DNA from: Chloroflexota bacterium
GTDB lineage: Bacteria; Chloroflexota; Dehalococcoidia; SZUA-161; JAUWZY01
Assembly (NCBI GenBank): GCA_030615045.1
Contig: JAUWZY010000001.1
Location: forward strand, 1-34,729
Reading direction: 5' to 3'
Length of the DNA: 34,729 nt
Positions 2,720 through 14,381 of the stretch are shown piece by piece. A program made the position numbers and the translations under genes. Every line of letters begins with the position of its first letter. Within the stretch, counting starts at the first letter, position 1. The notes below the pieces were generated by a model. The model made no database searches, had not been told where the DNA came from, and saw only the letters and a program-made list of their open reading frames with translations.

Positions 2720-3619
2720 TCAACTCCTGCTGTTATCCCTCGGCTCTTTGGGATAGGCGAAGACCATCCGTGCTGCTGCCCTCTGCAGCACCCTGGTGAC
2801 CACGACATCGATCTCAGCGTTGAGGTACCTTCGCCCCGCGTCGACTACGACTACGGTGCCATCGTCGAGGAAGCCAACCCCCTGTCCTGCCTCCTTACCC
2901 TCTTGAATGATGCGCAGCCTCATCTCATCGCCGGCGAGGACCACAGGTCTTATTGCGTTAGCCAGCTCATTAACGTTGAGCACGCGGATTCCCTGAAGTC
3001 CAGCCGCCCGGCTCAGGTTGAGGTCGTTGGTGACAATGGGGCAGCGGAGGCTTTTAGCCAACTGCACCAGCTTAGCATCAACCTCGGGGATGTTCTCGAA
3101 ATCGGTGTCCAGGACTTGAACTGGCACATCCGAGTCCGTTAGCATCCTGACCAGGATGCTAACGCCCCGGTGCCCCCGGTTACGCCGCATCGGGTCCGGC
3201 GAATCGGCGATATGCTGCAGCTCATTGAGCACAAACCTGGGAATGAGCAAGGTCTCGCGGATAAAGCCCGTCTGGCTGATATCGGCGATGCGGCCATCAA
3301 TAATGACATTAGTATCCAAGATGATGCGCCCATCATCACGGTGCGTGTCGCTTGGCGGAGCCGAGGTGGACAGCTGAAGGACATCGCGATTCCTCCCAAT
3401 CCAGCGCCAGAAAGAGGCGATGGCAGCCGGAGTAAACGCAAAGCCCACGGTGGCGCTGAGAAGCGCCACAGACATGCTCCACAGAAGCTCTCCACCTGGG
3501 GCCCAGTTGGCGATGAATAAGCCCAGCGCCCATCCGATAAAGCCCAGGACCACGGTGCCAATAAGCCGAATCACAATGCTAGCAGACATAAGCCCTGATA
3601 AGCCTCTCAGTCTTGACAA
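2720..3619 (-). CDS. membrane-anchored PIN/TRAM domain protein (YacL-like predicted RNase)
   Basis: The N-terminus is hydrophobic (IVIRLIGTVVLGFIGWALGLFIANW..., ...LLSATVGFAFTPAAIASFW). A PIN domain follows (IILDTNVIIDGRIADI...PRFVLNELQHIADS...IVTNDLNL), then a C-terminal TRAM-like beta domain (MRLRIIQEGKEAGQGVGFLDDGTVVVVD...VVVTRVLQ). The TTG start at 3619 lies 5 nt after GGAGGT; the ATG at 3589 is an alternative. Confidence 0.85.
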   Translation of the reverse strand: MSRLRGLSGLMSASIVIRLIGTVVLGFIGWALGLFIANWAPGGELLWSMSVALLSATVGFAFTPAAIASFWRWIGRNRDVLQLSTSAPPSDTHRDDGRIILDTNVIIDGRIADISQTGFIRETLLIPRFVLNELQHIADSPDPMRRNRGHRGVSILVRMLTDSDVPVQVLDTDFENIPEVDAKLVQLAKSLRCPIVTNDLNLSRAAGLQGIRVLNVNELANAIRPVVLAGDEMRLRIIQEGKEAGQGVGFLDDGTVVVVDAGRRYLNAEIDVVVTRVLQRAAARMVFAYPKEPRDNSRS

Positions 3620-3699: not shown

Positions 3700-3800
3700 T
3701 CGTGGTGGCAACCTAGCCGTCATAGCCTTGTAGAGGCCTTAGACCCTTGGCTTTGCGTCCCCTGATTTCTCAGGGTTTGCCCTTTTCACCGTCTACTATT
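3700..3800 (-). promoter_or_regulatory. c-di-GMP-I (GEMM-I) riboswitch aptamer, copy 1
   Basis: The minus-sense RNA is GGUGAAAAGGGCAAACCCUGAGAAAUCAGGGGACGCAAAGCCAAGGGUCUAAGGCCUCUACAAGGCUAUGACGGCUAGGUUGCC. It carries the hallmark blocks GGGCAAACC, a hairpin capped by a GAAA tetraloop (CUGA-GAAA-UCAG), GGGACGCAAAGCC and a CUAA-containing second hairpin. The order and spacing match my recollection of the Vibrio cholerae Vc2 aptamer. Confidence 0.85.
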
Positions 3801-3815: not shown

Positions 3816-3845
3816 ATTATAACCCCGCTCTCCCCAAAAAGTCAA
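3816..3845 (-). promoter_or_regulatory. sigma70-type promoter driving riboswitch 1 and the PIN/TRAM gene
   Basis: The minus sense reads TTGACT (3845-3840), an 18-nt spacer, then TATAAT (3821-3816), about 20 nt upstream of the aptamer. Confidence 0.6.
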
Positions 3846-4021: not shown

Positions 4022-5113
4022 CTAATCTCGCTGCAGGGGGGTATCGGCTTTGCCGGTTGCGCTTTTCCAGATCTGGTTGCCGCCAGCTCGCTTAGCCCGA
4101 AACATAGCCTCATCTGCTGCTTGCAGGAGTTGTTCTTGGGTTACCGCGTCCTCGGGGTACGAAGCGATTCCAATACTGACTGTAGCCTATACCTCGCCGT
4201 GTATCGGCGCCAATTTCGCTATCGACTGTGCAACCCGCTTGGCAGCCTGGTAAGCGCCCTCAGCGGATGCAGCGGGCAGAAGGACTACAAACTCATCTCC
4301 GCCATACCTAGCCACTATGTCTGACACTCGGATCCCCGAGCTGATACTTCGTCCCAATGCCTGCAATAGCTTATCCCCGGCTCGATGGCCAAATCGATCG
4401 TTCACTTCTTTCAGGTCATCAACATCGATCATGAGAATCGAGAGTGGGTCTCCACTTCTGTGGGCCCGTGCCAGCTCTCGAGCCATCTGTTCCCTGAGGA
4501 AGCGAATGTTGTGAAGCCGTGTCAGGTCATCGATGAGAGAAAGCTCCTTTGCCCGGTCATAGAGGCAGGCGTTTTCAATGGCCAGTCCAGCAAGGCTGGC
4601 AAAAGCCACAAGGAACTCAACATCCTCGGTGGTGAAACCTGCGAGCTCTCCTGTCCTATCAACGCCAATGACTCCGATTACTTCCTCCCGAACATGAATA
4701 GGGACATCGATGAAGCATTTTGTGCCCAGCGCGGCGAGGCCCTCTCTGGAATCACGGCAGCGGGGATCGTTCCAGGGGTCGTCCACGACGATCGGCCTTT
4801 TCTCAAACACAGCGCAGAGCGCCGGATTTTGGATACCGGGATCCAGCGAGATCACGTTCATCACAACCTCGGGTGGCACGTTCTCGCCAAACCAGGCCAT
4901 GCCTCGGAGCACGCCAGCTTCCCTGTCCACCAGCCCAAGCCAGCCCCGGTCCCAGGCCAGGCGCTCTTGCAAGGACTTCATAATGCAATCTATCCTCTCC
5001 TCAAGGGATGCCAGAGCGAGAAGCTTCCGCGCAGTCTGGAATAGTACCTGTAGTTCATGAGTGTGCTCCACCACTTCTACAAACAAGCTCTCTACCTCGC
5101 CTATGCCAATCAC
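4022..5113 (-). pseudogene. GAF-GGDEF diguanylate cyclase interrupted by an in-frame TAG at 4187-4189
   Basis: The track ORF 4187..5113 starts with GTG. It has an N-terminal GAF-like region, an RVSD I-site-like RxxD motif five residues before RYGGDEFVVLL, and MIDVDDLKEVNDRFGHRAGD. It stops at ...PIHGEV-TAG. The same frame continues ATVSIGIASYPEDAVTQEQLLQAADEAMFRAKRAGGNQIW... to a TAG at 4022-4024. That stretch is the conserved C-terminal third of a GGDEF domain. Confidence 0.8.
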
Positions 5114-5353: not shown

Positions 5354-5392
5354 AAAATAAAAAGTGAGCCTTCCGGATAGGGAAGGCTCACT
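5354..5392 (-). terminator. intrinsic terminator after the HK-REC-OmpR operon
   Basis: A perfect 12-bp stem AGUGAGCCUUCC/GGAAGGCUCACU with a 6-nt loop is followed on the minus strand by UUUUUAUUUU, about 50 nt after the regulator stop at 5441. Confidence 0.75.
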
Positions 5393-5440
5393 TAATGTAT
5401 TGGTGCCTCTCGACGCAGGGTGGTTACTATGTGATCATAG

Positions 5441-6169
5441 CTACTTCGCGATACTGTATCCGATGCCGGGTCTGGTTATGATGTATTTAGGGTTTTTGGC
5501 GTCATCCCCCAGCTTCTTCCTTAGCCTTGCCATATTGACCTGGACGATATGGTTTGCGCCGCAGTACTCCTCACCCCAAACCCTGCTCAGGATGTCATCG
5601 GGGGTTACCACCCGCCCTGCGTTGCGCGCCAAGTAGGAGAGCATCTTGTATTCTATAGCGGTCAGGTTTATCTCTCGCCCGGCCACAGTTACCACGTGGC
5701 GGGCAAAGTCAACCGCCAAATCCGCCGACTGAAAGGCTGGTTGTGGTCTTTCCTCCCACAGCTTGGTGCGGCGCAGCACCGCCCCCACACGGGCTGCCAA
5801 CTCCTTGGCAGAGAAGGGCTTGGGCACATAATCGTCAGCACCAGCGTTCAGTCCCTCGACTACCTCCTCTTCGTCACCCCTGGCAGTGACCATAATTATA
5901 GGTATCTGCGAGAACTCGCGAATGCGCTGACACACGGTATATCCATCAATGACGGGCATCACGATGTCCAGCAGCACCAGGTCTGGGGTTTCCTCATCAA
6001 ATACGTCAAGAGCAGCCTCACCGTTGCTGGCCGTGAGCACACGGTAACCCTCCAGATCCAGAATACGCTGCATCATGCGCAGCATGCGTACATCGTCATC
6101 AACCACCAGTATGGACGCTTTCCTTGATGGCATCCTGGTATCTCCGCTGGTACAGAATACGGTCGACAA
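5441..6169 (-). CDS. OmpR-family response regulator (REC + winged-helix DNA binding)
   Basis: ILVVDDDVRMLRMM...DLVLLDIVMPVIDG...ADDYVPKPFSAKEL forms the receiver domain. INLTAIEYKMLSYLARNAGRVVTPDDILSRVWGEEY...VQVNMARLRKKL...IITRPGIGY forms the Trans_reg_C domain. The likely true start is the ATG at 6133 (MPSRKASILVV); the track start at 6169 is TTG. Confidence 0.9.
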   Translation of the reverse strand: MSTVFCTSGDTRMPSRKASILVVDDDVRMLRMMQRILDLEGYRVLTASNGEAALDVFDEETPDLVLLDIVMPVIDGYTVCQRIREFSQIPIIMVTARGDEEEVVEGLNAGADDYVPKPFSAKELAARVGAVLRRTKLWEERPQPAFQSADLAVDFARHVVTVAGREINLTAIEYKMLSYLARNAGRVVTPDDILSRVWGEEYCGANHIVQVNMARLRKKLGDDAKNPKYIITRPGIGYSIAK

Positions 6170-6527
6170 CTCCCTTCAGGCTAGCTGCATTCAGGGGCTT
6201 GACGAGGTAGTCGGCAGCACCCATGCTGAGTGCCTTGTTTCGCTGCGATACCCCAGCTGAGGCGGTGAACATAATCACCGGAATCGCTGAGAGTGCTGGT
6301 TCAGTTTTCATCTGTTGCAACACCGCCCAGCCGTCATCTCCGGGCAGGCGCAAATCCAGCAGCACGAGAGCCATCGGGCTTTCTCTTGCCAATCTCAGCC
6401 CTTTGTCACCATCCTCAGCTTGAAGAACGCAGTAGCCCTCTAGCTGGAGCACCCGGGAGGCGAAGTGGCGGACGTCAGCCTCATCCTCTATAATAAGGAT
6501 CGTCTTTGTTTCATGTCTCCTTGCCAT
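6099..6527 (-). CDS. stand-alone CheY-like receiver protein
   Basis: ILIIEDEADVRHF...ALVLLDLRLPGDDGW...PVIMFTA...GAADYLVKPL shows the receiver acidic pocket, phospho-acceptor Asp, Thr and Lys. There is no output domain. It overlaps the start of the next gene. Confidence 0.85.
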   Translation of the reverse strand: MARRHETKTILIIEDEADVRHFASRVLQLEGYCVLQAEDGDKGLRLARESPMALVLLDLRLPGDDGWAVLQQMKTEPALSAIPVIMFTASAGVSQRNKALSMGAADYLVKPLNAASLKGVVDRILYQRRYQDAIKESVHTGG

Positions 6528-6545: not shown

Positions 6546-7355
6546 CTATAGCGGCAAGGTGAAGGAACACTTGCTTCCCTTCCCTTCCTCGCTTTCCATC
6601 CAGATGCGGCCACCATGTGCTTGCACCAGCCCCTTGGAGATGGACAGCCCCAGTCCTAAACCTTCCTCTTGGGGCAGCCTTTTCTCAATCCGATACATCC
6701 AATCAAACACTCTCTCCAGGTCCCCAGCAGGTATGCCTATTCCCTGGTCAGCGACGCTGATATGCAACTCCGAGCCCCCCCGGTGTGCCTGTACCACCAC
6801 GCTGCTTCCCTCTTTGGAATACTTGCAGGCGTTGTCGATCAGGTTATCCAGTACCTGCCTAATGCGCTTAGCATCAATGTTCACCCTCGGTAATCCCTTC
6901 CTCATGTTCAACACTATCTGGTGCCTGGGTGCCGTCAACTTAGCCTCAGCCACCGCCTCTCGGATCAGTTTTGAGATGCTGATGGGCTGTTTTTCCAGCT
7001 TCAGCAGCCCTGCATTAAGCTGGGACATATCTAGCAGATGGTCTACAAGCTCGGTGAGCCTATCAGTTGCTCTGTCTATGGATTGCAGGTGCTCCTGTTT
7101 CTCCTCACACCTCAGCCTCCGGTCGTAGTCCAGCAGCATGGTAGTATACCCCTTGATGGCTGCCAGTGGAGTGCGCAACTCGTGCGAAACTGTGGAAAGG
7201 AGATCGCTCTTAAGCCTGTCTAGCTCCTCGTATTCAACCACTTTCCTCTCAAGCTGCTGGCGCTCGGCTTCTACCTTTTCCAATTCAGCAATTCGTTGGC
7301 ATAGTTCTGCCAATTCATTTGTGATCCGCTTTTTTGTCTTAGCTTCGTCTTTCAC
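6546..7355 (-). CDS. cytoplasmic histidine kinase lacking a recognisable sensor domain (coiled coil + HisKA + HATPase_c)
   Basis: The H-box is STVSHELRTPLAAIKGY. The N, G1 and G2 blocks are VLDNLIDNACKY, VADQGIGIP and GLGLGLSISKGLVQAHGG. The first ~50 aa form a charged heptad-like helix (ELAELCQRIAELEKVEAERQQLERKVVEYEELDRLK). There are no TM segments. The start is GTG at 7355. Confidence 0.9.
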   Translation of the reverse strand: MKDEAKTKKRITNELAELCQRIAELEKVEAERQQLERKVVEYEELDRLKSDLLSTVSHELRTPLAAIKGYTTMLLDYDRRLRCEEKQEHLQSIDRATDRLTELVDHLLDMSQLNAGLLKLEKQPISISKLIREAVAEAKLTAPRHQIVLNMRKGLPRVNIDAKRIRQVLDNLIDNACKYSKEGSSVVVQAHRGGSELHISVADQGIGIPAGDLERVFDWMYRIEKRLPQEEGLGLGLSISKGLVQAHGGRIWMESEEGKGSKCSFTLPL

Positions 7356-7435
7356 CTTCTACCCCCCCCCGAAACAGGCACCAATTTCACCTGAGAGCCA
7401 GAGGGGCGAACCGCCGATTCGCGCTATGACATCAA

Positions 7436-7477
7436 GGAAATAAAAACGCGCTTCCCCGGGCCTCCCAGGAAAGCACG
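7436..7477 (-). terminator. intrinsic terminator, putative expression platform of riboswitch 2
   Basis: The minus-sense RNA is CGUGCUUUCC-UGGGAGGCCC-GGGAAGCGCG (10-bp stem with two G-U pairs) followed by UUUUUAUUU. It lies between the aptamer and the kinase start. Confidence 0.55.
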
Positions 7478-7487
7478 TCCCCTGTGC

Positions 7488-7586
7488 TTGCTTCGCCTTC
7501 GGCAGCCCGGCTGTCATAGATTGCTAACCCTTAGACCCGAGGCTTTGCGTCACCGCCTTTCAGCGGTTTTGCCCTTTCGGTGCGTA
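7488..7586 (-). promoter_or_regulatory. c-di-GMP-I (GEMM-I) riboswitch aptamer, copy 2
   Basis: The minus-sense RNA is CGCACCGAAAGGGCAAAACCGCUGAAAGGCGGUGACGCAAAGCCUCGGGUCUAAGGGUUAGCAAUCUAUGACAGCCGGGCUGCCGAAGGCG. It shows the same conserved blocks as copy 1: GGGCAAAACC, a GAAA-capped hairpin CCGCU-GAAA-GGCGG, GACGCAAAGCC and GGGUCUAAGG...CUAUGAC. Stem sequences co-vary between the two copies. Confidence 0.85.
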
Positions 7587-7627
7587 TTCAATTGTTGCTG
7601 GGTCAGATCACCCAACTCAGCGGGCGT

Positions 7628-7657
7628 ATTTTAACATATGTAGTTACTGTTTGTCAA
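7628..7657 (-). promoter_or_regulatory. sigma70-type promoter driving riboswitch 2 and the HK operon
   Basis: The minus sense reads TTGACA (7657-7652), an 18-nt spacer, then TAAAAT (7633-7628). Confidence 0.55.
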
Positions 7658-7863
7658 CCCGGGCCGGCGTTCCTGCATTTACTCACGTTCGGAAGCACCC
7701 CTTCCTCCTCCTTCCAGGGGAGGCGGCGCTATGACCACCTCCAATTTTATCTCCGCCATGGACTGACTTTGCCAAGTGCGAAGCATTTGACCAAACCGGG
7801 TGAGGCGCAAGCCCGCGTTAGATGAAGTCACAGCTTATTTTTGGGGCAAGGAAACCACTTCGA

Positions 7864-9389: not shown

Positions 9390-10397
9390 ATGGGGATAGA
9401 GATGATAGGATATGAACGATACGAAGTGGAGAGAAAAGTAATAGCAATCCTCAAGATACTAAGCGAGTCCCGCGAGCCTCTGGGAGCTAAGGTGATTGCC
9501 CAGCGACTGAAGGATTACGGCGTTGACCTTCGGGAGAGAGCAGTAAGGTACCACCTAAAGATCACGGACGAAAGGGGTCTCACCCAGCTCATAGGAAGAG
9601 ACGGGAGGTTGATCACTGAGTCAGGGATAGAAGAGCTGAAGAGTGCTCTGGTTGGTGACAAGGTTGGCTTTGTTATCAGCAAGATCGAGCTGCTGGCCTT
9701 CCAGACCTCCTTCGACTGGAAAACGCGCAGCGGTCATGTCCCGGTCAATGTTTCCCTTTTCCCCAAAGAACAATTCGACAAGGCTCGCAAGGCAATGAGC
9801 GATGCTTTCAAAGCAGGAATCTGTGTCAGCGATTCAGTAGCTATAGCTCGTGAAGGGGAAAGGTTAGCCGGAGTAACCGTGCCTGAAGGTAAGATCGGCT
9901 TTGCCACCGTATGTAGCATCATAATCAACGGGGCTCTGCTTAAAGCAGGCATCCCCATGGATTCGAAATTCGGTGGCCTGCTCCAAATAAGGAATGAGAA
10001 ACCTTTGCGATTTGTCGAACTCATCGAGTATGCCGGCTCTTCGCTCGATCCCTCGCAGGTATTCATCACCAGTAGAATGACCAGTGTAGGGGAAGCAGCC
10101 AGAAAAGGCGAAGGGAAGGTAGTGGCCAACTTTCGGCAGATACCGGCTTTATGCAGGCCTGTTGCCGAAAAAGTGGTCTCCGCATTAAGAGAAGCCGGGC
10201 TTGGCGGGCTGCTTATGATGGGAGACACAAGCCAGTCGGTGTGCGAAATCCCGGTGGAATTGAATAAGGTGGGCATTATACTCTTGGGCGGCCTCAACCC
10301 AGTGGCTGCCGCTGTAGAAGTCGGCATAGATGTGGAAAACAGGGCTATGAGCGGCGTCCTGGATTACCGGGACCTGGTAGGCTTCTGGCAGCTATAA
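9390..10397 (+). CDS. NrpR-like regulator (N-terminal winged helix + DUF128/NRD domain)
   Basis: ERKVIAILKILSESREPLGAKVIAQRLKDYGVDLRERAVRYHLKITDERGLTQLIGRDGRLITESGIEEL is the wHTH arrangement I recall for NrpR/COG1693 repressors of nif and glnA. One DUF128-like domain follows (VGFVISKIELLAFQTSFD...). This is a recollection-based family call. Confidence 0.65.
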   Translation: MGIEMIGYERYEVERKVIAILKILSESREPLGAKVIAQRLKDYGVDLRERAVRYHLKITDERGLTQLIGRDGRLITESGIEELKSALVGDKVGFVISKIELLAFQTSFDWKTRSGHVPVNVSLFPKEQFDKARKAMSDAFKAGICVSDSVAIAREGERLAGVTVPEGKIGFATVCSIIINGALLKAGIPMDSKFGGLLQIRNEKPLRFVELIEYAGSSLDPSQVFITSRMTSVGEAARKGEGKVVANFRQIPALCRPVAEKVVSALREAGLGGLLMMGDTSQSVCEIPVELNKVGIILLGGLNPVAAAVEVGIDVENRAMSGVLDYRDLVGFWQL

Positions 10398-12606: not shown

Positions 12607-13791
12607 ATGTTGAGTCATGTGGAAATTAAGAATTACAAGAGTCTCGCTTCCACTGTGGTCAATCTTGATAGTTTCACAGTGCTGGTAGGACCCAACGGGG
12701 CAGGTAAGAGCAACTTTGTAGACGCGCTACGCTTCGTCAACCAATGTCTCGTTTCCTCTATTACTCTGCCAATTCAGGATCGTGGTGGAATCGGTGCTGT
12801 GCGGCGACGCTCCAGGGGTCATCCCAGACATTTTGGCTTTCACTTAGGAATAGAGCTTCCCTCAGGGCTGTTCGCAGATTTCTCCTTTGAGATCGCTGCC
12901 CTGCCTAAAGGAGCCTTCGAGGTCAAACAGGAAAGATGCATCGTGCAATCTGCGCTGGGCAAAAGGGACCAGTATGAAGTAGAGGGCGGGAAGTTCAAGC
13001 GAGGAGTGGAGGGGATTAGGGCCAAGATCGAACCAGATCGTCTGGCCCTAACCGTGGTCTCTGCAGCAGAAGAGTTTCGCCCCGTATACGATTATTTGAG
13101 TGGCATGCGGTTCTATTCGTTGGCGCCAGATAAGATTCGTGAATTACAGGGAGCCGATCCGGGTGAGGTATTGGAGCGTAATGGCAGTAATGCCGCAGCA
13201 GTCCTGAGAGAGATCAGAAAGGAGAAGCCAGATAACTACGACCGACTTTGCCGGCTACTATCAAAGGTCGTTCCTGGCACCAAAAGTGCCGAGTATGTTT
13301 CAGTCGGGCAAAAGGAAACTATCCTCTTCAAACAGGAGGTAGAGGGGGATAGCGCGCTATGGGCCTTCGATTCATTGAGTATGTCAGATGGTACACTTCG
13401 AGTGTTAGGTATACTGCTGGCGGTATATCAGGTGTCACCCCCGACTCTAATCGCAATTGAGGAGCCTGAAGCCACCATTCACCCTGCGGCATTAGATGTG
13501 TTAGTGGATATACTCAAAGACGGCACACATCGAGCACAAATCCTGCTTACCACCCACAGCCCTGACATCTTGGATAATAAAAGCATCAAAGACAGTGAGA
13601 TTCTTGTCGTGGAGTCCATCAAGGGGAAAACCACTATAGCCCCGATGGATGGGAAGTCCCGTGATATGGTGCGTCAGCACCTATACACGGCTGGAGAGCT
13701 ACTCCGTTCCGGAGAATTGGAGCCTGATAGAGAAAAAGCCATGGAGTTGGGGGAGCAACTAAATCTATTTGGTCCAGTAAATTACTCATGA
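12607..13791 (+). CDS. ABC/SMC-like ATPase (AAA_15/AAA_21 type, OLD/PARIS-AriA/Septu-PtuA-like)
   Basis: The N-terminal strand-loop reads VEIKNYKSL...LVGPNGAGKSNFVDAL, with Walker A at nt 12688-12711. An ABC-signature-like LSMSDGTLRVLG, Walker B/D-loop LIAIEEPEATIHP and H-loop LLTTHSPDIL follow. SD GGGAGAGGAAAG precedes the ATG. Confidence 0.85.
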   Translation: MLSHVEIKNYKSLASTVVNLDSFTVLVGPNGAGKSNFVDALRFVNQCLVSSITLPIQDRGGIGAVRRRSRGHPRHFGFHLGIELPSGLFADFSFEIAALPKGAFEVKQERCIVQSALGKRDQYEVEGGKFKRGVEGIRAKIEPDRLALTVVSAAEEFRPVYDYLSGMRFYSLAPDKIRELQGADPGEVLERNGSNAAAVLREIRKEKPDNYDRLCRLLSKVVPGTKSAEYVSVGQKETILFKQEVEGDSALWAFDSLSMSDGTLRVLGILLAVYQVSPPTLIAIEEPEATIHPAALDVLVDILKDGTHRAQILLTTHSPDILDNKSIKDSEILVVESIKGKTTIAPMDGKSRDMVRQHLYTAGELLRSGELEPDREKAMELGEQLNLFGPVNYS

Positions 13792-14381
13792 CAGATTCAA
13801 TTGTGCCAATTGTCGAGGGACAGTCTGAGGTGGATTCAGTGCCGGTGCTAATGCGTCGCCTCCGAGACGAGTGGGGCAAATACCAACTGGAAATTGGAAA
13901 ACCGGTTCGGGTCAAACGCTACCAAGTCATTAAGGAGGGCGAGTTGGAAAGACGAGTTATGATGGCAATGCAACGCCCAAACTGTCGGGCTGTCATAGTA
14001 ATCCTCGATGCGGACGATGATTGTCCAAAGGATTTTGCGCCGAAGTTGTTAGAGCGGGCCAAACAAGCAGCACAAAATACACTTGTATCGGTTGTCTTGC
14101 CGAAGTCGGAGATGGAATCTTGGTTTGTGGGCAGCATCGAATCTCTGCGTGGCGTGTGTGGTATCTTAGACACAGCGTGTTCACCATCCGATCCTGAAGC
14201 CATACGCGATGCGAAGGGATTTCTAACTAGAGCGATGGAGGGGAGTCACCACTACCTTGAGGTAGATGACCAGCCTGCCTTTGCAGAGAAATTTGATCTA
14301 ACCCAGGCTCTTAGCAATTGTCGTTCGTTTAAGAAATTCTATAATGATTTCCGCAGAATCGTATGCTTGCTCACTCCATAG
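13788..14381 (+). CDS. small Toprim-like protein resembling the DUF4276 family
   Basis: The start overlaps the ATPase stop (ATGA). IVEGQSE (Glu codon at 13815-13817), VIVILDADDDCP (14007-14021) and KSEMESWF give the E...DxD acidic pattern of Toprim folds, in the order I recall for DUF4276. This is a family call from memory. Confidence 0.7.
   Translation: MTDSIVPIVEGQSEVDSVPVLMRRLRDEWGKYQLEIGKPVRVKRYQVIKEGELERRVMMAMQRPNCRAVIVILDADDDCPKDFAPKLLERAKQAAQNTLVSVVLPKSEMESWFVGSIESLRGVCGILDTACSPSDPEAIRDAKGFLTRAMEGSHHYLEVDDQPAFAEKFDLTQALSNCRSFKKFYNDFRRIVCLLTP

Follow-up and report, generated by a model that had tools for sequence, protein, structure and literature searches.

The RNAs closest to the element described here belong to the c-di-GMP-I riboswitch family, named for the second messenger cyclic di-GMP (c-di-GMP). 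One of them, Cd1, the flgB leader of Clostridioides difficile, is reported (Sudarsan et al., 2008) to be a c-di-GMP-I OFF switch that acts through premature termination. Our subject is a c-di-GMP-I aptamer and its surrounding leader on the minus strand of contig JAUWZY010000001.1 (assembly GCA_030615045.1, Chloroflexota bacterium, class Dehalococcoidia). All 34,729 nucleotides of this stretch, positions 1 to 34,729, were analyzed and are called the window. The aptamer is designated copy 2, because a further aptamer of the same family (copy 1) is present on the same strand. Copy 2, which precedes a three-gene operon that begins with a histidine kinase gene, is almost certainly a c-di-GMP-I riboswitch, for which ligand binding is predicted. 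The best overall explanation of the data, and one that we consider fairly probable, is that it forms the leader of this operon and mediates OFF-type attenuation by c-di-GMP.

In members of this family, G20 reads the Hoogsteen edge of one c-di-GMP guanine (G-alpha) and C92 forms a Watson-Crick pair with the other (G-beta) (PMC6140456). Listed contacts include G19, G21, C46 and A47-G50 (PMC7288161), and A47 intercalates (PMC6140456, PMC7288161). A common design of ON switches among GEMM RNAs has the 5' arm of the terminator overlapping the 3' side of the last aptamer helix (Weinberg 2007, PMC1950547).

The aptamer and its leader

All 4227 Rfam families were compared with the entire window using cmscan. 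Only two matches were obtained, both to c-di-GMP-I (RF01051) and none to c-di-GMP-II (RF01786). Copy 2 matched RF01051 at 7583..7498(-) over model positions 1-87 of 87 with a score of 86.2 bits (gathering score 35, E=6.8e-16), which is 2.5 times the curated cut-off, and the alignment is free of non-canonical pairs. Copy 1 matched at 3791..3704(-) with 80.3 bits. The first hairpin of copy 2 reads GC / AAAA / ACCGCU-GAAA-GGCGGU / GAC / GC and is followed by an AAA linker. It consists of two base pairs, an AAA(A) internal loop, six base pairs and a GAAA tetraloop, in agreement with the family definition (PMC1950547) apart from one additional A in the internal loop (AAAA). The second hairpin holds the tetraloop receptor UCUAAG/UAUGA at the positions of the consensus CUAAg...uAuG, and this receptor departs from the 11-nt motif in a single flanking pair. 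A preliminary description, made from the letters of the window, had placed a second c-di-GMP-I riboswitch in the interval 7436-7657. Both the covariance-model score and these defining features support that assignment, and the interval proved to extend exactly from the -35 element through the end of the U tract. The sequence blocks it had quoted (GGGCAAA(A)CC, GACGCAAAGCC, GGGUCUAAGG and CUAUGAC) are present in both RF01051 alignments, the aptamer of copy 2 being on the minus strand, and the same alignments confirm the first-hairpin helices CCGCU-GAAA-GGCGG (copy 2) and CCCUGA-GAAA-UCAGGG (copy 1). Copy 2 adds a regular member to a well-known RNA family and is not a new type of element.

At 90% identity, the kinase encoded downstream forms one cluster with five others. 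Loci L196, L197, L198 and L199, which carry kinases of this cluster, were used for comparison throughout. The leader contains the following features, in order of transcription.

7699..7666, minus strand: block upstream of the -35 element (GGTGCTTCCGAACGTGAGTAAATGCAGGAACGCC), a candidate regulator site with two GAACG repeats 20 nt apart, kept in L196 and L199
7657..7628, minus strand: sigma-70-type promoter, with -35 TTGACA at 7657..7652, an 18-nt spacer, TG at 7636..7635 and -10 TAAAAT at 7633..7628
7621..7597, minus strand: 5' leader hairpin GCUG..UGGGU-GAUCUG-ACCCA..CAGC, seen in every fold
7583..7498, minus strand: c-di-GMP-I aptamer, supported by RF01051 (86.2 bits), by our own covariance model R1 (90.1 bits) and by the covariation counts given below
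7551..7533, minus strand: candidate switching sequence (GACGCAAAGCCUCGGGUCU) inside the aptamer, complementary to the terminator loop and 3' arm
7497..7483, minus strand: aptamer-terminator linker (GGCGAAGCAAGCACA), of which GCGAAGCA is kept in all four homologous leaders including that of L199
7479..7438, minus strand: intrinsic terminator, with 5' arm 7479..7464, loop AGG, 3' arm 7460..7445 and U tract UUUUUAUUU at 7446..7438

The promoter TTGACA-18-TAAAAT claimed in the preliminary description was recovered by the promoter scan at 7657..7628(-), with 11/12 matches and a TG extended -10, and transcription is predicted to start near 7621. Note that promoter-like matches are not rare in this DNA (5 found versus 2.9 expected per 4.7 kb). 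The promoter and the aptamer are 45 nt apart. The hairpin and UUUUUAUUU said to precede the kinase start were likewise found, both by the terminator scan and in the sequence directly: the scan returned a terminator-like hairpin plus T run at 7482..7442(-), a long, G+C-rich hairpin of 16 bp. This terminator begins 18 nt past the aptamer, with no nucleotide common to both, and 82 nt separate the U tract from the kinase GTG at 7355. The aptamer is therefore in a 5'-regulatory position and is accompanied by an expression platform, an anatomy that is kept in L196 and L198. The linker at 7497..7483 probably holds the 3' strand of P1, the closing helix that the 5' and 3' flanks of the aptamer form in this family.

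Two further parts of the leader deserve mention. The block at 7699..7666 is a putative binding site, perhaps of the operon's own OmpR-type protein. The 5' hairpin is situated at the predicted 5' end of the transcript, and its GAUCUG loop is kept in L199 on a longer stem of different sequence; the hairpin may have a role in RNA stability.

When copies 1 and 2 were compared over the 22 pairs of the model, 13 pairs were identical, two differed on one side (G-C/G-U) and seven differed on both sides. Six of these seven two-sided differences are canonical in both copies, and at the remaining one copy 1 has A.A where copy 2 has C-G. Identical columns amounted to 22/27 in the unpaired core and 28/44 in paired positions. 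No alignment of the two leaders is obtained beyond the aptamer; copy 1 has its own promoter (TTGACT-18-TATAAT, 3845..3816(-), promoter scan). A compensatory pattern between the copies, rather than a recent DNA duplication, had been proposed previously and agrees with these counts. The possibility that copy 2 is a recent duplicate of copy 1 is ruled out by the unalignable flanks together with the compensated helix changes, and the pattern is that expected of two long-separated functional copies.

Relatives were then collected with a retrieval pattern composed of blocks common to both copies, which returned 120 metagenome loci and 73 unique aptamer stretches (68 after trimming). A MAFFT alignment of all 70 aptamers misregistered the 3' strand of the second hairpin where one nucleotide was missing, and was replaced by an in-register subset of 26 sequences. 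In this subset, 96.5% of cells were canonical versus 81.9% for shuffled columns and 24-45% for slid partners, with two-sided changes at 10 pairs. A covariance model was built from the 26-sequence alignment and 88 matches were realigned to it, 86 of them distinct. For the distinct sequences, 96.2% of cells were canonical versus 23-45% in slid controls, and two-sided changes occurred at 14 of the 22 pairs (246 such cells). None of 500 shuffles reached the observed value on any of five measures. These values should be read bearing in mind that the retrieval pattern fixes the conserved blocks and that the covariance-model alignment is fitted to structure. Covariation among relatives, which the preliminary description had named as a test of the proposal, is supported by the shuffles, the pair counts and the slid controls.

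According to Pfam, the products encoded downstream of the retrieved relatives include a CheY-like receiver, a HAMP-GGDEF-EAL protein, a chemoreceptor of the PocR-MCP type and a protein resembling HD-GYP. For others, the N-termini, read by eye, suggest pilins and many surface proteins. Several loci (L103, L182, L134, L176, L089, L120, L194, L179, L145, L110 and L115) contain two or three c-di-GMP-I aptamers. In some of these, the copies are ~200 nt apart on the same strand and resemble the tandem arrangements described for GEMM.

Predicted mode of switching and ligand

In the mechanism that we propose, transcription would begin at the sigma-70-type promoter, and the short 5' hairpin would be followed by folding of the c-di-GMP-I aptamer. 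Binding of c-di-GMP at the three-helix junction, to the equivalents of G20, A47 and C92, would lock the aptamer, the terminator hairpin would form, and RNA polymerase would stop at UUUUUAUUU, leaving the operon OFF at high c-di-GMP. When no ligand is bound, the aptamer core (GACGC...CCUCGGGUCU) would pair with the terminator loop and 3' arm, and some polymerases would read through. We regard it as likely that control is exerted through the terminator. Modeling of the folds inclines us, by a small degree, to a transcriptional OFF switch in which c-di-GMP favors termination.

Expression platforms in which the bound aptamer coexists with the terminator are usually read as OFF switches. The OFF assignment was made for copy 2 because aptamer and terminator can coexist and because the aptamer core is complementary to the terminator 3' arm. 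A fold in which the aptamer was enforced kept the full terminator (-74.1 kcal/mol, versus -76.3 kcal/mol for the unconstrained minimum free energy (MFE) structure). Using RNAduplex, pairing of 7551..7533 (GACGC..CCUCGGGUCU) with the loop and 3' arm (AGGCCCGGGG..GCGUU) was calculated at -25.9 kcal/mol versus -19.6 +/- 2.4 kcal/mol for shuffled sequence (p about 0.013). The complementarity test in relatives yielded results for L196 and L199, and the complementarity of core and 3' arm is kept in L196 (p about 0.05).

In the copy 1 leader (3845-3653(-)), a 9-bp pairing joins GGCUAGGUU in the aptamer 3' strand to AACCUGGCC in the terminator loop and 3' arm, at -24.3 kcal/mol versus -16.0 +/- 2.7 kcal/mol for shuffled sequence (p about 0.003). 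At transcript lengths of 146-150, with the 3' arm incomplete, the copy 1 antiterminator is the MFE structure by 7-10 kcal/mol. Copy 1 would therefore appear, in these models, to follow the same OFF-type logic with an unrelated platform sequence, and to do so more clearly than copy 2.

Several observations weigh against the reading of copy 2 as a c-di-GMP-dependent OFF switch. Its antiterminator no more than ties with the aptamer fold at one transcript length, 170 nt (-62.5 vs -61.9 kcal/mol), and is the less stable of the two by 4-6 kcal/mol after emergence of the 3' arm, so any effect would be kinetic. The complementarity is absent from the paralogous leader in L199 (p about 0.82), and a G-to-A change in the 3' arm of the orthologues improves the terminator and breaks one antiterminator pair. 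P1 is a distinct GGUG/CACC helix in copy 1; in copy 2, three registers tried by eye gave at most 2+2 or 3-4 pairs, and the two substitutions of L196/L198 in the presumed P1 strands are compensatory in no register tried. Among the close orthologues the aptamer hardly varies, so that they add conservation and no covariation. Finally, both ligand binding and the direction of switching in copy 2 are predictions.

The polarity may also be the reverse, with bound c-di-GMP blocking termination, for example through a long P1 or a tertiary contact that captures the linker and the terminator 5' arm, so that the operon would be ON. This would be in keeping with the many GEMM representatives that are predicted to be ON switches, including 78 of 322 with terminators that compete with the last helix (PMC1950547), with a 4-bp GCAC/GUGC match seen by eye between the 5' flank and the terminator 5' arm, and with the thermodynamic weakness of the copy 2 antiterminator and its loss in L199. 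We nevertheless judge this polarity unlikely, since the terminator neither overlaps the aptamer nor is disrupted when the aptamer is enforced, and upstream complementarity to the terminator 5' arm was no better than that of shuffled sequence (p about 0.94 for copy 2; p 0.5-0.96 overall). The GCAC/GUGC match itself is lost in L196/L198, where the corresponding sequences are GCAG/GUGU. Two candidate antiterminators were also rejected: one using the terminator 5' arm was no better than shuffled sequence in any leader, and a linker hairpin (AAGCAC/GUGCUU) considered as an antiterminator seed is not kept in L196/L198.

Less probable still is that a ligand-binding aptamer acts elsewhere (on translation initiation, mRNA stability or Rho) and that the hairpin and U tract are a constitutive attenuator. 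In favor of this, 82 nt lie between U tract and start codon, every fold pairs a G-rich ribosome-binding region with CCCCUCUGG, and the terminator is thermodynamically favored in both states. Pairing of the ribosome-binding region, however, hardly differs between the free and aptamer-enforced ensembles, and translational control was discarded as a candidate on this basis. The G9 run in that region is absent from the orthologues. Within the platform, conservation is highest in the terminator and U tract, and this holds even for L199, where homology ends immediately afterwards.

For the ligand, the contacts listed in PMC7288161 identify G20 as the unpaired G immediately 5' of a G-C pair, which is model position 11; model position 83 is taken as the C92 equivalent, a mapping that we inferred. 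In copy 1, in copy 2 and in every orthologue, model position 11 is G and model position 83 is C, and the GACGC-AAA-G junction is present. Because equivalents of G20, A47 and C92 are present, c-di-GMP is the expected ligand of copy 2 and is favored over cyclic GMP-AMP (cGAMP). Recognition of 3'3'-cGAMP, as in GEMM-Ib, or of another dinucleotide is very improbable: the cGAMP class has the same fold and some natural members are bispecific (PMC6140456), but cGAMP-sensing GEMM-Ib members have A at position 20 (PMC6140456), where both window copies and all orthologues have G together with C at the C92 position. Wild-type Vc2, which has G20, binds c-di-GMP at picomolar concentrations and cGAMP only at ~10 uM (PMC6140456), and a GAF-GGDEF gene adjoins the operon.

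Conservation, movement and genomic setting of the leader

In the species-level genome collection, the closest relatives of the kinase are encoded in metagenome-assembled genomes (MAGs) of Dehalococcoidales/Dehalococcoidia at 58-73% identity. The set of kinase orthologues comprised 64 GTDB loci, plus short-form operons from metagenomes. Among the GTDB orthologues, some are long and have PAS/GAF sensor regions, and the others share the short form of the window kinase. An Rfam scan of 11 GTDB orthologue loci gave no match to any family, and short-form kinase-regulator-regulator operons from metagenomes (63-71% identity) were without the aptamer in the same type of scan. L196 and L198, the two contigs that extend far enough upstream, carry the same aptamer (85.9 bits) at the same position upstream of the kinase, and in L197 the aptamer is cut by the contig end and the terminator is kept. 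The earlier claim that the leader controls a histidine kinase operon thus gains support from position (promoter, aptamer, terminator, kinase and two regulators) and from its recurrence ahead of the orthologous kinase in three other assemblies.

Relative to the window, L196 and L198 have an identical -35 element and spacing with a -10 of TACAAT (TTGACA-18-TACAAT), two aptamer differences, both at unpaired positions, and four or five substitutions in the terminator arms, all of which preserve pairing. The substitutions in the L197 terminator likewise leave its pairing intact. The U tract UUUUUAUUU is common to the window, L196, L197 and L198 and reads UUUUUGUUUU in L199; its first five U residues are invariant in the window, L196, L198 and L199. 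Downstream of the leader, L196 has the same order as the window (kinase, regulators, GAF-GGDEF). Presence of the leader within one 90% kinase cluster and its absence at 58-71% identity indicate a lineage-specific acquisition. From this comparison, the predicted riboswitch is a maintained feature of the operon in one shallow lineage, within which it was probably acquired. That copy 2 lacks any regulatory role, being an aptamer-like sequence that is in decay or arose by chance, or else DNA recently duplicated from copy 1, is scarcely credible: distant orthologous operons do without the aptamer and whole-leader duplication does happen in this lineage (L199), yet the match is full-length at 86 bits and has no non-canonical pair, copies 1 and 2 share nothing beyond the aptamer and their differences concentrate in compensated pairs, and independent assemblies retain all three of aptamer, promoter and terminator, with diverged sequence past the terminator and ahead of the -35 block.

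In L199, the kinase gene is represented by its 3' end and is accompanied by the two regulator genes; downstream of the operon there is an aptamer (83.9 bits) that resembles copy 2, not copy 1. The gene after this leader starts MLINIIGSGVVGTATGKGL... and, read by eye, resembles the N-terminal, NAD-binding part of a UDP-glucose/GDP-mannose dehydrogenase. Positions 1890-2170 of L199 are homologous to 7699..7436 of the window: homology begins ~45 nt upstream of the -35 element and ends just past the U tract, and the flanks are unrelated. The L199 terminator keeps its pairing, including one C-G to U-A double change. These limits at both ends of the leader indicate that promoter, 5' hairpin, aptamer and terminator moved as a unit. 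Note that the L199 duplication does not account for the relationship of copy 1 to copy 2. As a tentative extension, which we think rather unlikely, a leader module of ~265 nt (upstream block, promoter, 5' hairpin, aptamer and terminator) may have been copied before unrelated transcription units in one Dehalococcoidia lineage, one of them ahead of a sensor-less two-component operon, with c-di-GMP as the operon's RNA-level input, possibly in feedback with the adjacent GAF-GGDEF cyclase. If true, riboswitch regulons would grow through whole-leader duplication and not through duplication of the aptamer alone.

The genes and signals downstream of the leader are as follows.

7355..6546, minus strand: histidine kinase, 269 aa, with HisKA and HATPase_c (Pfam), a coiled-coil-like N-terminal segment and a GTG start
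6527..6099, minus strand: receiver-only response regulator, 142 aa (Pfam Response_reg), in a gene order shared with L066 and L070
6169..5441, minus strand: OmpR-type response regulator (Pfam Response_reg and Trans_reg_C), the last gene of the operon
5393..5362, minus strand: strong intrinsic terminator closing the operon, 13 pairs and then TTTATTTT (terminator scan)
5113..4025, minus strand: GAF-GGDEF gene, next after the operon on the same strand (Pfam)
3619..2720, minus strand: PIN-domain gene, downstream of copy 1 (Pfam)

The kinase has no sensor and no transmembrane domain in the Pfam search, and its GTG start is backed by full-length short-form homologues. A G9 run (7370..7362(-)) stands just ahead of this start; close orthologues are 7 bases shorter there and begin with ATG, not GTG, and the difference in homopolymer length is possibly an assembly artefact. 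The nearest relatives of the kinase core include long forms with N-terminal PAS, GAF or receiver domains, at up to 89% core identity (for example, in L001 and L003; proteins P0002, P0004 and P0014), so that sensor-less and sensor-bearing versions coexist in these organisms. The receiver-only regulator (142 aa), whose gene overlaps the start of the next, was called at 61 aa in L196 (1435-1620) and L198 (1368-1553) and at 132 aa in L199 (292-690); the gene thus seems to vary within the lineage or to be undergoing erosion. For the OmpR-type regulator, orthologues of 230-232 aa were found, and the real start is probably the ATG at 6133.

The GAF-GGDEF gene has an in-frame TAG at 4189..4187(-), after ...APIHGEV, beyond which the frame continues through the rest of GGDEF (ATVSIGIASYPED...RAKRAGGNQ). 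The L196 orthologue has Gln at this position (IHGEVQATVSIGIA), so that the TAG of this assembly counts as a nonsense change, from CAG to TAG provided that L196 uses CAG here. It may mark a pseudogene, reflect variation within the population or stem from faulty assembly. The remaining window is ordinary chromosome (rpoB, rpoC, valS, dnaJ, an NrpR-like regulator and others). The NrpR-type regulator (9390-10397(+)), of a family best known from archaeal nitrogen control, is encoded between HisF-like and glutamate-synthase-like genes, and an AAA_21 ATPase and a DUF4276 gene form a pair within 12607-14381(+).

Comparison with known systems

Our literature search, which had incomplete coverage, returned no report of a c-di-GMP riboswitch in Dehalococcoidia and none of one before a two-component operon in Chloroflexi; given that coverage, this is weak evidence of novelty. 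The arrangement described here would place c-di-GMP riboswitch control before a two-component phosphorelay in an uncultured Dehalococcoidia lineage, in which second-messenger signalling has been little studied, and two c-di-GMP-I leaders and a GGDEF gene within ~5 kb make up a compact candidate c-di-GMP circuit. By comparison with relatives, the acquisition of the leader can be dated, and reuse of the whole leader module before another gene is seen. The family's known mode of action is unchanged, and receiver, GGDEF-EAL, MCP and HD-GYP-like genes are already found downstream of aptamer relatives.

Copy 1 belongs to the same family as copy 2. Its promoter is likewise of the sigma-70 type and has a spacer of 18 nt, its terminator does not overlap the aptamer, and its aptamer shows complementarity to the loop and 3' arm of the terminator. 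Copy 1 differs in 7 of 22 pairs on both sides, in its unrelated flanks and platform, and in its downstream gene, which encodes a PIN-domain protein. Cd1 reportedly resembles copy 2 in having a separate intrinsic terminator that is able to coexist with the folded aptamer, and in both cases the ligand would raise termination. In copy 2, unlike Cd1, the direction is inferred, and the candidate antiterminator is weak and uses the 3' arm instead of the 5' arm.

Vc2 of Vibrio cholerae, the type example of RF01051 (PDB 3IRW/3MXH), shares with copy 2 the two-hairpin aptamer, the GAAA tetraloop, the AAA linker, the receptor, the equivalents of G20, A47 and C92, and a location in the 5' untranslated region. 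The first hairpin in the family consists of 2 bp, a 3-nt loop and 6 bp, from which copy 2 differs by one extra A. Unlike in Vc2, the closing pair of the copy 2 receptor is U-A and not C-G, the host is a MAG of Dehalococcoidia (Chloroflexota), and the genes controlled would be those of a two-component operon and not of competence or adhesion. With the predicted ON switches among GEMM RNAs (PMC1950547), copy 2 has in common its aptamer family and control by an intrinsic terminator; it differs in that the terminator 5' arm is 18 nt downstream and has no nucleotides in common with the aptamer. Lastly, the GEMM-Ib cGAMP riboswitches of Geobacter (Gs1761, PDB 4YAZ) have the same fold and overall consensus as copy 2, but the specificity position, which is A in GEMM-Ib, is G in copy 2.

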